A stretch of DNA of 32,000 bases from Ignavibacteriales bacterium (GCA_031406095.1 JANOGR010000137.1:1-32000); one strand, 5' to 3'. Shown: positions 5,444 to 11,038, counted from the first letter of the stretch. The notes: generated from the sequence alone by a model not told the origin. Program-made: numbers and translations.

Positions 5444-5726
5444 AAGGGTACTTCTTCCTTATTGGTTGAACATGAACACCATTTGTTTCACAAAAACAAA
5501 AGGCGCAATCCCGCGAAGCGGGACACCTTCTCCCGAAGGGATCCCTTCGGGAATTGTTCAGCTTGACCGCTTGCGCGGTCTTGGCACAATCTTTCCGCAA
5601 CGGTTCGAAGCCCCACAGCCGAGCCCATCCGAAGACGGGCCTGCACGCCGAAGGGCGGCGTTTCGGCCCGCAGGCGGGCAAAAGCAAAACAAATTGTGAT
5701 GAAACAAGAACGGTGCTGTGAATTGA
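5444..5726 (-). promoter_or_regulatory. Long (~280 nt) GC-rich structured 5' leader of csp. It contains a terminator-like hairpin with a U-tract (5492-5527) and a 22-nt perfect palindrome (5531-5552).
   Basis: This is the span between the predicted -10 box and the ATG. Multiple perfect hairpins are visible. On the minus strand the sequence ggtgtcccgc-ttc-gcgggattgcgcc is followed directly by ttttgttttt. Confidence 0.5.
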
Positions 5727-5732
5727 CGTGAA

Positions 5733-5761
5733 AGTATACAATTCGCAGCCGACAAATGCAA
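5733..5761 (-). promoter_or_regulatory. Sigma70-type promoter, putatively for csp
   Basis: The minus strand reads TTGCAT, then 17 nt, then TATACT. Confidence 0.5.
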
Positions 5762-5807
5762 GCCCGCCTGAATTGAGTAATGTCTTAATTTGTTTGGTCC
5801 GTAAGTG

Positions 5808-5890
5808 GTGTCAGGAGCCCGCCCCCGCCAGACCGCTCGGCGGGCTGGCGAACGACTGGTCGTTCAGTCGGGCGGGTTTCCTCCTGACAC
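5808..5890. repeat. Complex member of the 'gtcagga' palindrome family: an outer 10-bp stem enclosing a second stem and two inner hairpins
   Basis: gtgtcaggag (5808-5817) pairs with ctcctgacac (5881-5890). cccgccc (5818-5824) pairs with gggcggg (5870-5876). The inner hairpins are cccgcc/ggcggg and gaacgac/gtcgttc. Confidence 0.75.
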
Positions 5891-5901
5891 AGGCAGGGTT
5901 T

Positions 5902-5949
5902 CGGTCAGGACGTCCGCCAAAAACACGGCGGATAAAAAAGTCCTGACCG
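5902..5949. repeat. Member of the 'gtcagga' palindrome family with an inner tccgcc/ggcgga hairpin
   Basis: cggtcaggac (5902-5911) pairs with gtcctgaccg (5940-5949). The inner pairing is tccgcc (5913-5918) with ggcgga (5927-5932). Confidence 0.75.
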
Positions 5950-5997
5950 CACCAACTTAAGACACCACCCTGAATTGTTCCAGATTCGCAATGATGG

Positions 5998-8349
5998 CTA
6001 CTCGTTTTCCCCCAGCCAGATGCCGAATTCCTCGTTTTCTTCGGATTCTTTGACCCCTTCGGACTTCTCCCTGGTTACTTTTTTTGTCAAAATCCTGATT
6101 CCCTTGGGTGAGAAACCAAACAAGTCGTCGAGTGAAAAAATGATTTTGAAATCCTCGGGTTCAAAAAACTCCCGGAATTTTTCAGCGCACTCGTTGAGGC
6201 GTCCGAGATAATATGCCGTGTTCTCATCAGGCAGGTTGGAATCCCACTCGTCAGCGATGCGGCAATTGTCGGCGATCTTGACTTCCTGGTGCGTTCCCGT
6301 GACGTAGTAAGAAATCCTCTCGCCTGCTTTGAAATAGAGACCGGCCTTTCGCGCTGCTTCGTATGTAGCAGAAACATTCCGTTGGCCGTGTTCAACGAGT
6401 CTGGTGTATGTCTCGAGATCCTCGCGAACCGTCTCTGTGCGGCAGAAATCTGCTGCTTCCCATTGGTGGTTCCTGACCTGCGTTGTGAAAGAGGCGTATG
6501 TGTGGTGAAGTCGCGGAATCTCACCGGTCAGGAGACATTCAATGCATCGTTGGACAAATAAACGGCTAAATCGCTCCATGGATCGTGAAATAAGTGAACT
6601 GCCCCTGATGATGAGGTTGTCGGAGTCATCAAGCAGGGCATAGTTTTTCATCTTGTAGCTCAGCATTTTCTTGTATCTTCCTTCAAGAATGAGGTTGATT
6701 CCTGCCGGCAGGGTTTTTGAGACCCGCTCCACAAAGGCCTCTGTGTTTTTCTCACCGCGAATGTTATCGGGAGCAATGAAAAAAATACCGTCCGTGTCAA
6801 CCTCGATAGGAAGAGCGTTGAACAGTTCCATTTCTCTCAGAATCGAACGTAAAATGGTTTGACCTGTCGAGGTGACCACATCCGCTTGTTGGTAATCATT
6901 GAACAGTCCTCTGCTGTATCCAAGATACCCGTAGAATGAATTGATAAGAATTTTGAATGCAGACTGCATAGCGTCAAAGTGGGCGCGCGAGCGGGCCGAC
7001 TTCGCCCGCTTCATGTTCGATTTGGCCTTTAACCTCAGGTTTGTAAGCTCCCGGAGAAGGGGGACAAACACATCCAGAGTATCCGTGCGGGGTTTCACGG
7101 GCTTGGAAATCATGATGGAAGGGTAGAGGGATTCCACATCGGCTTGCAGGACGTTCTCCAAAACGCCCGTCGAAAAAATATCGGTGTATCCTCCCACCGT
7201 CTGAGCACCCCTTTGTGGCCTCGGGATTGAATGTTTTTGCCTGAGGTATTCGCGCAAAACCAGTGATTCCAGCCTTGCCGATGAACCCAGCTGAGCAACG
7301 GTTCCGTAGCCAAACGGACACATTTGCGCAAGATAGAAATTACTCGGAGAAAGACGCTCGCTCACCGCCTCGATGACGTGGGTATTGCCGAGAGAGTATT
7401 GAAGAAGGGTTTCAGGACGCTCGTCCCAAACGGACGTTATGCGGTGTTTTGGGATTGCAGCGAACTGTTGTATCTGGAAATGGGCACTGAGGTGGTTGAG
7501 GTCGTAGCCCTCAAGAGAACGTTTGGAGTAGTCATAGGTTCGTACCAGGTGTGATGTGTCGATGAGATGCCTGCCGGGGCAATCGTAAACCGTAAACTCG
7601 TCCTCCGAGTAAAACCGCTTCTGATAGGTCTTCAAGGCATGTTGGCCTCTACCAAGTATGAGGTCGATACCAAGCAACTCGCATCTTTGTGCAATGTAGG
7701 GTAACACAAAACTGAAGAACTCGTGTCCTTCAATGATATCGGGGTCTTTCTCCTGAATCAAAGCGATGAATTGCCCAAGCATCTCTTTTTCGTCCAGCTT
7801 TCGCCCGTCAAGCTGCTGTTTCCACCTGTGATTATCTGACATCGAAATCACAACAATCCGACCCTGCTGTTTCAAGGAATCCGTCAACCTCTGATTCGCG
7901 GAATACACCTGAATATCGATCTGCATTCTGTTGAGGTCCCGAAACGACATGCCCTTGAACGAAGTTTTTCCAGATTGCATGAGGTATTGGTACACAGGGT
8001 CGGGACGAAAAAGCATCGAATCGACCTCTTGATAACTATCGGCGCGGGGCCTGCGGGTTTTGTTATACTGGTTGAGGACGAAGTTGACGGCTTCCCACAT
8101 TTCGTTCCACCGTTTGAACACTAAAAGGTGTTTGTAGTCGTGTTGGCCCGTGAGTTCTTTGATCCAATAAAAGGCGGGAAACCCTGTGATGAGGGAGGCA
8201 TCGGCTAGAAAGAAAAAGGGAAAGAATTCCACGTCTTCATGCGTGACCTTTCCCTCGATTCGTTTGTAGATGCGGACGAGCGAATCGTTCAGCTGGTAGA
8301 CGGCGACAATACACTCATCTGTATGGTGTCCATACAGAAGGGGGCTCAT
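5998..8349 (-). CDS. Family-B DNA polymerase (Pol II-like) with substituted 3'-5' exonuclease motifs
   Basis: The polymerase motifs are intact: motif A DVESLYPS, motif B KILINSFYGYLG, motif C EVDTDG and a KxY-like YKMKNY. In the exonuclease motifs, Exo I reads DIQ where DIE is expected, Exo II reads GHEFFSFVLPY where GWNVVQFDL is expected, and Exo III reads YSLGN where YxxxD is expected. I placed the start at the ATG at 8349. The longer ORF starting at 8469 would overlap the upstream gene. Confidence 0.85.
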   Translation of the reverse strand: MSPLLYGHHTDECIVAVYQLNDSLVRIYKRIEGKVTHEDVEFFPFFFLADASLITGFPAFYWIKELTGQHDYKHLLVFKRWNEMWEAVNFVLNQYNKTRRPRADSYQEVDSMLFRPDPVYQYLMQSGKTSFKGMSFRDLNRMQIDIQVYSANQRLTDSLKQQGRIVVISMSDNHRWKQQLDGRKLDEKEMLGQFIALIQEKDPDIIEGHEFFSFVLPYIAQRCELLGIDLILGRGQHALKTYQKRFYSEDEFTVYDCPGRHLIDTSHLVRTYDYSKRSLEGYDLNHLSAHFQIQQFAAIPKHRITSVWDERPETLLQYSLGNTHVIEAVSERLSPSNFYLAQMCPFGYGTVAQLGSSARLESLVLREYLRQKHSIPRPQRGAQTVGGYTDIFSTGVLENVLQADVESLYPSIMISKPVKPRTDTLDVFVPLLRELTNLRLKAKSNMKRAKSARSRAHFDAMQSAFKILINSFYGYLGYSRGLFNDYQQADVVTSTGQTILRSILREMELFNALPIEVDTDGIFFIAPDNIRGEKNTEAFVERVSKTLPAGINLILEGRYKKMLSYKMKNYALLDDSDNLIIRGSSLISRSMERFSRLFVQRCIECLLTGEIPRLHHTYASFTTQVRNHQWEAADFCRTETVREDLETYTRLVEHGQRNVSATYEAARKAGLYFKAGERISYYVTGTHQEVKIADNCRIADEWDSNLPDENTAYYLGRLNECAEKFREFFEPEDFKIIFSLDDLFGFSPKGIRILTKKVTREKSEGVKESEENEEFGIWLGENE

Positions 8350-8377
8350 CTCCGGAGGAGATGTCGATTGCGTACTG

Positions 8378-9139
8378 TCATTTATTCTTGCCAAGTTCCA
8401 AGAAAGGTCTGAGCAGGTCGATGGGGATGGGAAAGATGGTCGTGGAATTCTTATCCGTAGCAATCTCACGGAGTGTTTGCAGATACCGGAGCGTCAAAGC
8501 GCTCGGTTGTTTTGCGAGAATCTCTGCCGCTTCAGAAAGTTTTTGCGAAGCCTGGAATTCACCCTCAGCTGCGATGACTTTGGCGCGACGTTCACGCTCT
8601 GCCTCGGCTTGCTTTGCCTTGGCTCTCTGCATTTCCTGCGGGAGGTCGATTTGCTTGACTTCCACCGTTGACACCTTGATTCCCCACGGAGCAGTGTGAC
8701 TGTCGATGATCTGCTGAAGCTTCAGGTTGATTTTGTCACGTTGTGACAGCAAATCGTCCAACTCGGACTGTCCCAGCACGCTTCGGAGTGTCGTTTGCGA
8801 GAGTTGGGATGTTGCGAAAAGAAAATTCTCCACGTCAATGATGGCTCTTTGTGGCTCGATCACACGGAAATAGATGACAGCATTCACCTTGATGGAAACG
8901 TTATCCTGAGTAATAACATCTTGCGGAGGGACATCCATGACAACGGTGCGCAGGCTGACCTTTACCATCTTATCGATGAACGGCCATAGCCAGATAATAC
9001 CCGGACCTTTCACGCCAAGCACTCGGCCGAGTCTGAAGATAACTCCGCGTTCATACTCCCGCAGAATTCTGACGGCGTTTGCGGCGAGGATGATAAAAAA
9101 AAAGACGAGAAGATAGAGAGCGGGCGATACCATATTCAT
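8378..9139 (-). CDS. SPFH/band-7 (stomatin-like, slipin) membrane protein
   Basis: An N-terminal TM helix is followed by [14 protein letters not shown]...[13 protein letters not shown] and a C-terminal coiled coil ([24 protein letters not shown]). It sits directly downstream of NfeD, which is the classic pairing. Confidence 0.9.
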
Positions 9140-9169
9140 AGAAGTCTCCTTGAGTGGACGTGAGATTCC

Positions 9170-10444
9170 TTACGTGAGTTTTTCAACGATGACCATAAGT
9201 TCATGTAATTCGACGACGCGGACGCGGTCTCCCTTGGAAATTTCGCCCTTTTTTGTCTGGGCACTCCAGATTTCTCCATGAACTCGCACGTGCCCCGTGG
9301 GGTTCAGGGTTGATATTGCCTCACCCGTTTCCCCGATGAGGCCCTCCGAGCCGGTTGTAGCCTTCCTGGTTTGGGCTTTAAGCCCCAATCCGATGACCAC
9401 CAAGAAAAAGAGAGACGTAATGGCAACAGACGTAATAATGACGGACCAGGAGATCTCGATGAATTCCAGGGCAGAATCAGACCGTATGAGCATCATCGAG
9501 CCAAGCAAGAGTGAAATGACTCCTCCCACACTCAGCAAGCCGTGGCTCACCACCTTGATTTCAAGGACGAATAGTATGACAGAGAAAATGATGAGAGCCA
9601 AACCCGCATAGTTGATAGGGAGAGTATGGAAAGAATAGAATGCGATGATCAAGCTTATAACACCCACAATTCCCGGAAGAATCGAGCCGGGGTTATAGAG
9701 TTCGAACAGGAGTCCATAGACGCCCATCATGAACAGAATGTAGGCGATGTTGGGATCGCTGAGGATATCCAACACTTTTTCAGACCAGCCCATTTCATAT
9801 GTCTCGATCGAGGCACCTTTCGTTTGGAGCGTGACGGTACCACTGGTTGTTTCCACTCTCTTCCCATGAACTTTTTCGAGGAGCTCCTCAAGGTTTTGCG
9901 CCACAAAGTCAATCACGTGCTTTTCGAGCGCCTCTTGTTCTGTGATGGAAAGGCTTTTGCGGACGGCTTCCTCCGCCCACGCGACGTTTCTCTGCCGCTT
10001 TTCGGCAATCGAACGGATAAAGGCAGCGGCATCGTTCGTGGCTTTTTCCGTCATGATGGAATCTTGCTGGCCTTGCAGCGACACCGGGTGTGCGGCGCCA
10101 ATGTTTGTTCCAGGCGCCATCGCAGCGATGTGGCTCGCAAGCGTCACAAATACTCCAGCGGACCCGGCGTGAGCCCCGCTTGGTGCAACATAGACGATGA
10201 CAGGAATACTCGATTCGAGAATGTCGCTGACAATGACTCTTGTGGATTTAAGAAGGCCGCCGGGAGTGTTCAGACGAATGATGATACAGGTGGCACCGGC
10301 TTCCTTTGCGCGCTCGATGCTGCTGTGAATGAACTCGGCAGCGGCTGGATTGATTGCGCCGTCAATTCTTATGGACGCAACTTTCTGGGCGTGGAGGGTG
10401 GTGCTGAGAAGAGTGCACAGAATGAGAGAAGATAAACACTTCAT
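9170..10444 (-). CDS. NfeD-family membrane-bound serine protease (ClpP-fold, stomatin-operon partner protease)
   Basis: It has a signal peptide and a ClpP-like domain (IIRLNTPGGLL...APSGAHAGSAGVF...GAAHP). Several TM helices follow, and the C-terminus has an OB-fold NfeD domain (GHVRVHGEIWSAQ...GDRVRVVE). An AGGAG RBS lies 8 nt upstream. Confidence 0.9.
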   Translation of the reverse strand: MKCLSSLILCTLLSTTLHAQKVASIRIDGAINPAAAEFIHSSIERAKEAGATCIIIRLNTPGGLLKSTRVIVSDILESSIPVIVYVAPSGAHAGSAGVFVTLASHIAAMAPGTNIGAAHPVSLQGQQDSIMTEKATNDAAAFIRSIAEKRQRNVAWAEEAVRKSLSITEQEALEKHVIDFVAQNLEELLEKVHGKRVETTSGTVTLQTKGASIETYEMGWSEKVLDILSDPNIAYILFMMGVYGLLFELYNPGSILPGIVGVISLIIAFYSFHTLPINYAGLALIIFSVILFVLEIKVVSHGLLSVGGVISLLLGSMMLIRSDSALEFIEISWSVIITSVAITSLFFLVVIGLGLKAQTRKATTGSEGLIGETGEAISTLNPTGHVRVHGEIWSAQTKKGEISKGDRVRVVELHELMVIVEKLT

Positions 10445-10497
10445 GCGATTACTCCTGACGATAGAAGAAACGAAAACTCGGCTGCAAAATCAACTCA

Positions 10498-10526
10498 TTG
10501 CATTTCGGCCATTCTTTTTCTATTAT
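10498..10526 (+). promoter_or_regulatory. Sigma70-type promoter for tRNA-Ser(GGA), and possibly for the downstream operon
   Basis: The sequence reads TTGCAT, then 17 nt, then TATTAT. The -10 box ends 12 nt before tRNA position 1. Confidence 0.55.
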
Positions 10527-10538
10527 GGGTTTAACCAT

Positions 10539-10625
10539 GGAGAGGTGCAGGAGTGGTTGAACTGGCCACCCTGGAAAGGTGGTTTACCCGCAAGGGTAAC
10601 GTGGGTTCGAATCCCACTCTCTCCG
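10539..10625 (+). tRNA. tRNA-Ser (anticodon GGA), 87 nt, no encoded CCA
   Basis: The manual fold gives acceptor stem GGAGAGG/TCTCTCC and D-arm CAG-GAGTGGTTGAA-CTG. The anticodon arm is CCACC-CTGGAAA-GGTGG, followed by an 18-nt variable arm and the T-arm GTGGG-TTCGAAT-CCCAC. Confidence 0.9.
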
Positions 10626-10660
10626 CACTCACGTTCTCCGAGCGACTGTCCACACAATCC

Positions 10661-11038
10661 ATGAACGAAACGATCCTTGTCGCTGAAGACCAACAACACA
10701 TTCGGGCTCTCATCGAGTATAAACTCAAGAACAGCGGGTTTATTGTTGTGGCAGTGGAGGACGGTGTTGCGGCGTTGTCAAAAGCCAGGGAGATCAAACC
10801 AAGAATGATTCTCCTTGATGTGATGATGCCATTGATGACCGGGTTTGAGGTGCTCTCTGCCCTCAAACAGGATCCGACGACCAAGCACATCCCTGTTCTT
10901 CTTGTGACAGCGCAAAGCAAGGAGGAAGAAGTTCTTAAGGGACTTGAGCTGGGTGCGGAAGACTACATAACAAAGCCCTTCAGTCCAAACGAGTTAGCGG
11001 CTCGCGTAAAGAAGGTCCTTCTTCGCCACGCCAAATGA
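10661..11038 (+). CDS. Single-domain CheY-like response regulator (125 aa)
   Basis: ILVAEDQQHIR...ILLDVMMPLMTGFEV...PVLLVTAQ...ITKPF matches the receiver domain pattern. I placed the start at the ATG at 10661. The longer ORF from 10553 reads through the tRNA. Confidence 0.9.
   Translation: MNETILVAEDQQHIRALIEYKLKNSGFIVVAVEDGVAALSKAREIKPRMILLDVMMPLMTGFEVLSALKQDPTTKHIPVLLVTAQSKEEEVLKGLELGAEDYITKPFSPNELAARVKKVLLRHAK

Follow-up and report, generated by a model that had tools for sequence, protein, structure and literature searches.

Loss of the 3'-5' exonuclease is familiar in accessory DNA polymerases, among them Pol alpha, Pol zeta, PolB2, PolA2/APEX and many Pol I enzymes, and a single change of an Exo I carboxylate is the standard route to exonuclease-minus family-B enzymes (Pfu, T4, phi29 and Pol II). 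In bacteria, PolB2 (group G2) works in a mutasome with iRadA and PPB2 and is thought to be a translesion extender (PMC11791011, PMC8764526). Group G3, the second largest bacterial family-B polymerase group, is portrayed as conserved at both its exonuclease and its polymerase site in the passages that surveys devote to it (PMC7544198; PMC12926913). Here we describe polB, a gene at positions 5998-8349 on the minus strand of a 32,000-nucleotide stretch from an Ignavibacteriales bacterium (GCA_031406095.1 JANOGR010000137.1:1-32000; the whole stretch is hereafter called the window). Its 783-residue product resembles the G3 enzymes in architecture and polymerase motifs and differs from them at the exonuclease site, where three of the four catalytic carboxylates are substituted.

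Polymerase and exonuclease sites of the window PolB

All features described below lie on the minus strand. The start codon of polB is the ATG at 8349. An alternative, longer frame with a GTG start extends to 8469, into the neighbouring SPFH gene; because the family alignments open at MxxLLYG and the GTG frame overlaps the SPFH gene, we regard the ATG as the true start. The product matches Pfam DNA_pol_B (2e-26) and DNA_pol_B_exo1 (7e-13) and carries motifs A (DxxSLYPS), B (KxxxNSxYG) and C (DTD), the set that identifies a family-B DNA polymerase. Its AlphaFold2 (AF2) model has a mean predicted local distance difference test score (pLDDT) of 90.4 and a predicted template modelling (TM) score of 0.83, and a Foldseek search with this model matched the 9N, KOD and Tgo polymerases across the whole length, with TM scores of 0.74-0.76. 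Public runs of three studies yielded contigs that span polB, with 0 differences at the codons of the exonuclease and polymerase motifs, and the PolB of a genome of the same genus (G001) has identical motif residues. Since independent contigs and the related genome carry the same residues, assembly error is excluded for the substitutions in the motifs.

The polymerase motifs of the window PolB are all canonical in the alignments. Motif A reads DVESLYPS (D404; 7117-7140), motif B reads KILINSFYGYLG (K466; 6919-6954) and motif C reads EVDTDG (D518 and D520; 6787-6804), while the KxY motif, which contacts the primer terminus, is KNY at residues 568-570 (6640-6648). Judged from these residues, the two-metal polymerase active site is intact.

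The 3'-5' exonuclease domain comprises residues 135-335 (7345-7947); it matches PF03104 and is confidently modelled. The fold is retained and the catalytic site lost. Exo I, DxE in active enzymes, reads D145-I-Q147 (7909-7917), with D145 kept (7915-7917) and the Glu at position 147 replaced by Gln (7909-7911). In Exo II (NxxxFD; 7705-7722), Asn at position 210 is replaced by Glu (7720-7722) and Asp at position 215 by Val (7705-7707). In Exo III (YxxxD; 7384-7398), Y318 is kept and Asp at position 322 is replaced by Asn (7384-7386). Only D145 and Y318 are thus left of the residues that an active DEDDy exonuclease requires, and three of the four carboxylates are lost.

Three independent alignments concur on these substitutions. 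The HMMER alignment to Pfu polymerase (2jgu) includes Exo II and Exo III, and the MAFFT alignment with E. coli Pol II (from NC_000913) and a Salinibacter phage G3 PolB extends over Exo I-III. The third and most telling alignment is with exonuclease-intact homologues about 50% identical to the window PolB, which read LDIETYS, GHNIFGFDLPY and YALDDV. The motif readings and codon coordinates of the original prediction, which was made from the DNA alone, are therefore correct. Pfam, HMMER and AF2/Foldseek confirm its assignment to family B. Read from these alignments, the DEDDy exonuclease persists merely as a folded domain without metal-binding carboxylates.

Placement within group G3

The Glu residue preceding DTD in motif C is a synapomorphy of G3, B10 and Pol-epsilon-N (PMC7544198). 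It is present in the window PolB (E516-V-DTDG) and in 118 of 121 close homologues. Salinibacter phages and Nostoc phage N1 are the sole viral G3 members named in PMC7544198, and a search of 50,697 phage records had these as its top matches (Salinibacter phages, 4e-126 and 35% identity across 94% of the query; Nostoc phage N1, 1e-35). In the MAFFT alignment, every motif context of the Salinibacter phage PolB is common with that of the window PolB. Since the top phage matches are these viruses and the motif contexts are common, the protein clusters with the published members and, on this evidence, belongs to G3, the bacterial group that was defined by Kazlauskas 2020 (PMC7544198) and is so far uncharacterised. 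In the parts of the surveys that describe G3 (PMC7544198; PMC12926913), the likeness comprises the N-terminal/exonuclease/polymerase architecture, the motif C Glu, hosts from the FCB group and, at the C-terminus, a candidate clamp motif.

The window PolB departs from these descriptions in two respects. It lacks the conserved exonuclease that the relevant part of PMC12926913 gives as a property of G3; its clade has no exonuclease site, and lineages nested in the clade have no polymerase site either, whereas G3 as published in those parts keeps both. In addition, the nearest solved structures, by sequence as well as by fold, are not Pol epsilon but archaeal B3 enzymes from Thermococcales (8e-41 with phmmer, 7e-91 with a family profile).

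E. coli Pol II (G1), to whose motifs the original prediction had aligned the exonuclease region, scores 1e-7 with phmmer and 1e-38 with the family profile. It is like the window PolB in length (783 aa), fold and domain order, but the two are only 22% identical and Pol II proofreads. The G1 signature GWN in Exo II, with its conserved Trp, is missing from the window PolB, which reads EGHE there. Orthology with Pol II was ruled out.

Membership of PolB2/G2 was also ruled out. PolB2 is recognised by a single-Asp motif C, the absence of Exo III and an iRadA-PPB2-PolB2 operon. The window PolB shares with PolB2 the predicted lack of proofreading in a family-B polymerase, but it has the full DTD and the Exo III Tyr (Y318), its neighbours are SPFH and NfeD genes with neither iRadA nor PPB2, and a PF01726 search of the genome gave no LexA.

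Exonuclease loss across an Ignavibacteriales clade

The family counts 3802 proteins in a word-indexed search and 498 with E-values up to 1e-30 in a representative library. Its hosts are Ignavibacteriales, Ignavibacteriaceae, Kryptoniota, Rhodothermales and Salinibacteraceae metagenome-assembled genomes (MAGs); the related-locus scan behind this host list used polymerase-motif patterns, so that polymerase-dead forms were beyond its reach. In an alignment of 254 family members, we scored eleven positions. Both sites are intact in 94 members, the exonuclease alone is lost in 128, both sites are lost in 29, and the polymerase alone is lost in 3. The last three (P0136, P0143 and P0200) combine the full exonuclease signature DENDYD with lost polymerase residues and represent the opposite path of decay.

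A FastTree phylogeny built without the exonuclease-domain columns places the window within one uniformly exonuclease-dead clade of at least 115 clusters, all from one Ignavibacteriales family. The whole tree has at least 20 changes of exonuclease state, indicating that smaller losses occurred elsewhere too. In an IQ-TREE phylogeny of 46 rows, the remaining families of the order have intact enzymes, two genera with an intact form (L012 and L016) are basal inside the family of the window, and the exonuclease-dead clade of 26 rows has an SH-aLRT support of 99.

Within the 115-cluster clade, the Exo I Glu is kept by none of the members (0/115) and is Gln in 72. At most one of the four carboxylates is left in 113 of the 115, whose polymerase site still has D-K-E-D-D in 98 cases out of the 115. 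The formerly catalytic exonuclease positions are hypervariable; among close relatives, position 210 may hold D, N, E, G, S or H. As reconstructed from the trees and the alignment, a single loss of the exonuclease site took place at the root of a large clade in one Ignavibacteriales family, and the site was never regained. The first step was probably the Glu-to-Gln change in Exo I, consistent with a single GAA-to-CAA change. The loss is the ancestral state of the clade and not peculiar to this gene. The predicted combination of dead proofreading and a competent polymerase is upheld, as far as sequence and evolution show, by the clade-wide loss of carboxylates, the retention of D-K-E-D-D in 98/115 members and purifying selection.

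Selection on polB

We compared the window with the same-genus genome by the Nei-Gojobori method. The ratio of nonsynonymous to synonymous substitution rates (dN/dS) is 0.116 for the whole gene, 0.165 for the exonuclease domain, 0.081 for the palm and fingers and 0.059 for the thumb. The exonuclease domain is thus relaxed two- to three-fold and is still a constrained, folded domain. Column entropy gives a concordant picture, the exonuclease being the most conserved domain in the intact forms and the least conserved in the exonuclease-dead forms. polB is a live gene under purifying selection.

Polymerase-dead orthologues in the same family

We surveyed the genome of the window together with 24 other genomes of its family. 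PolB is intact in 2 of the 25 genomes, exonuclease-dead and polymerase-intact in 15, that of the window included, and full-length with degenerate motifs A, B and C as well in 6 (G002, G004, G005, G012, G015 and G017); the remaining 2 have no PolB match. The polymerase-dead orthologues are full-length proteins of 775-794 aa from at least six genera of the family, and G040, whose genus belongs to another family, has the same decay of the polymerase site (loci L032, L033, L034 and L124-L127, in G017, G005, G015, G012, G004, G002 and G040; further loci, L129/L130). In these forms, the Asp of motif A has given way to Glu, Ser, Gly or Lys, motif B has lost its Lys, and DTD has mostly become TGE, DGE, DNE, DGS or ERD, with DTD retained in G012. 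According to IQ-TREE, they arose at least three times.

The polymerase-dead genes are not relics. In G005, G015 and G017, whose upstream flanks were examined, polB stands within the same nfeD-SPFH-polB row as in the window. A same-genus pair of polymerase-dead forms (G005/G041, 83% identical) has a dN/dS of 0.119 at a dS of 0.81, with the tightest constraint in the N-terminal domain (0.083) and the thumb (0.074). Since dN/dS is 0.119, we consider the polymerase-dead orthologues to be functional proteins and not pseudogenes. A different kind of disruption was seen in one relative of the order, G025 (L128, G025:C1:50862-53170), where the orthologous gene consists of two frames (503 and 303 aa) that overlap, owing to a frameshift or a sequencing error.

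The basic KxY region, an SLDDLF-like motif and a terminal (G)IWL(D/G) tip are retained in all forms. In the window PolB, the SLDDLF sequence (6118-6135) is a candidate beta-clamp-binding motif, kept in forms with both sites, with the polymerase site only and with neither. The segment 6001-6135 holds this motif and, beyond it, an acidic and disordered tail of about 35 aa (pLDDT below 50) that ends in GIWL (6013-6024). I777, W778 and L779 vary little or not at all, and the tip is present in the polymerase-dead orthologues too. The acidic tail with its hydrophobic GIWL tip resembles the C-terminal tip of SSB.

These orthologues raise the question of which property of the protein is selected. Selection could act mainly on a non-catalytic scaffold that binds DNA, the clamp or a partner, the polymerase site of the window PolB then being an unlost remnant or serving a secondary function, by analogy with ImuB and the C-terminal half of Pol epsilon. 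The spread of full-length polymerase-dead forms over at least six genera and G040, with nfeD and SPFH upstream in G005, G015 and G017, fits such a role, as do the constraint on the same-genus pair, strongest in the N-terminal domain and thumb, and the universal retention of the SLDDLF-like, IWL and basic KxY elements. On the other hand, the sub-lineage of the window keeps every polymerase catalytic residue, its palm and fingers (dN/dS 0.081) are held more tightly than the rest taken as a whole, and the full catalytic set is present in 98 of the 115 clade members. Catalysis therefore still seems to be selected in this sub-lineage, and we consider a mainly non-catalytic window PolB unlikely.

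A broader proposal concerns the family and not the window alone. One orthologous gene in a fixed row occurs in three states, with both sites (exo+/pol+), with the polymerase site only (exo-/pol+, as in the window) and with neither (exo-/pol-), under comparable purifying selection and with the N-terminal domain, the thumb, SLDDLF and the GIWL tip preserved throughout, and its main retained function may be non-catalytic, such as DNA or clamp binding or the recruitment of partners. We put this forward tentatively, at somewhat less than even odds. If true, bacteria would have in this lineage a family-B equivalent of ImuB or of the inactive Pol epsilon half. Given the polymerase-dead orthologues, an additional non-catalytic role is plausible for the whole lineage.

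Gene neighbourhood and other polymerases of the genome

An SPFH/Band 7 gene (8378-9139; Pfam, 1e-37) lies 28 nt upstream of polB, and a gene for an NfeD membrane protease (9170-10444), assigned by Pfam and by comparison of the row, is the first of the nfeD-SPFH-polB row. This row is kept in 24 of 28 loci of relatives with sufficient flank, regardless of catalytic state, with SPFH-polB spacings of 10-100 nt across the order. It is present in many named Ignavibacteria MAGs and absent from the Kryptoniota and Rhodothermales relatives. SPFH is 70-87% identical among relatives and PolB 36-66%, indicating that PolB evolves much faster. A sigma-70 promoter scan of 5700-10800 gave nothing above shuffled sequences, Bacteroidota promoters being outside the consensus used, and a terminator consensus scan of the same interval gave none between SPFH and polB. 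polB is probably transcribed together with the nfeD and SPFH genes; the row may reflect a functional link or simply gene order passed on by descent.

The 2.9-Mb genome, 100% complete by markers, has single genes for DnaE, Pol I and a Y-family polymerase and also encodes a DnaQ-like protein (contig C88). A second PolB gene is split over the ends of two contigs of G000, C151 (L004:4741-6081) and C51 (L002:2-973), and its product is only about 20% identical to the window PolB. It has PolB2/G2 hallmarks: motif C reads HAIIDC, with a single Asp, against YGDTDS, the Exo II Asn and Asp are replaced by Tyr and Leu, and Exo I and Exo III are unalignable. It is flanked by purN-like and pdxJ genes, with no iRadA or PPB2 beside it. 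Of 41 relatives, 30 carry such PolB2-like genes, with identities of 53-84%. Their presence forms no clean pattern with the state of the G3 gene among these genomes: the two intact-G3 genomes of the family have no PolB2-like gene, and other families have both.

Discussion

Taken together, the window PolB is probably a real, active, non-proofreading accessory polymerase: a G3 enzyme with an intact polymerase site and a dead exonuclease, a reading to which we assign a probability of about 0.72. Such an enzyme would extend primers and synthesise DNA without proofreading. It may be recruited through its C-terminal motifs, with a probable tether to the beta clamp through SLDDLF, and may serve in repair, gap filling or the extension of mismatches or lesions, alongside the replicative DnaE, Pol I, the single Y-family polymerase and the PolB2-like enzyme.

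Several observations weigh against this picture. The polymerase-dead orthologues stay under selection, so catalysis is not the sole selected property of the family. The translesion or accessory role is suggested by analogy. No LexA_DNA_bind match (PF01726) was found in the genome, no damage-response genes stand among the neighbours of polB, and SLDDLF is conserved but lacks the Gln with which the QxxLF clamp consensus begins. To our knowledge, no G3 PolB has been characterised biochemically.

Two further explanations fare worse than the non-catalytic scaffold. Proofreading might be kept, either in trans, the DnaQ-like protein of contig C88 being one candidate, or through an unconventional site in the same domain. 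The genome does hold the DnaQ-like gene, the exonuclease domain is under purifying selection, and a new Glu occupies the Asn position of Exo II. However, the formerly catalytic residues differ among close relatives and leave no conserved substitute site, and nothing connects the DnaQ-like gene with polB, which makes retained proofreading very improbable. A decaying pseudogene without function, which the hypervariable exonuclease residues, the low identity of PolB (36-66%) relative to SPFH (70-87%) and the split G025 gene might suggest, is rejected given the dN/dS of 0.116, a 2.35-kb frame open in more than 100 clusters, polymerase residues kept in 98/115 and the same sequence in assemblies from several studies.

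A non-proofreading accessory G3 polymerase would have parallels outside the group. The actinobacterial PolA2/APEX, as the part of PMC12926913 dealing with it describes, is likewise an accessory lineage with a vestigial 3'-5' exonuclease, an intact polymerase and a clamp motif, but it belongs to family A and to another phylum. The catalytic subunits of Pol zeta and Pol alpha are family-B enzymes that structurally keep an inactivated exonuclease beside an active polymerase; they differ in being multi-subunit, in their C-terminal metal-binding domains and in belonging to a Delta-like clade.

A large exonuclease-dead lineage inside G3, contrary to the published description of the group, appears to be undescribed, as does the nested series that leads, in a fixed gene row, to selected and catalytically empty orthologues. 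No Ignavibacteria or Chlorobi entries were found in the portions of the PMC7544198 supplements that were covered, and the Ignavibacteria passages in the covered part of the genome list of the 2026 survey (PMC12926913) all name Melioribacter roseus. Our literature search found no paper linking Ignavibacteria with PolB.

The two surveys that define G3, in their passages on the group, portray a high-fidelity proofreading enzyme and sampled few Ignavibacteria. In this group, a lineage known from MAGs only has given up proofreading, and some of its genera have given up polymerisation too, with the gene retained. The close orthologues with both sites, with the polymerase site only and with neither form a natural test of what a non-proofreading PolB and a family-B "pseudo-polymerase" do.

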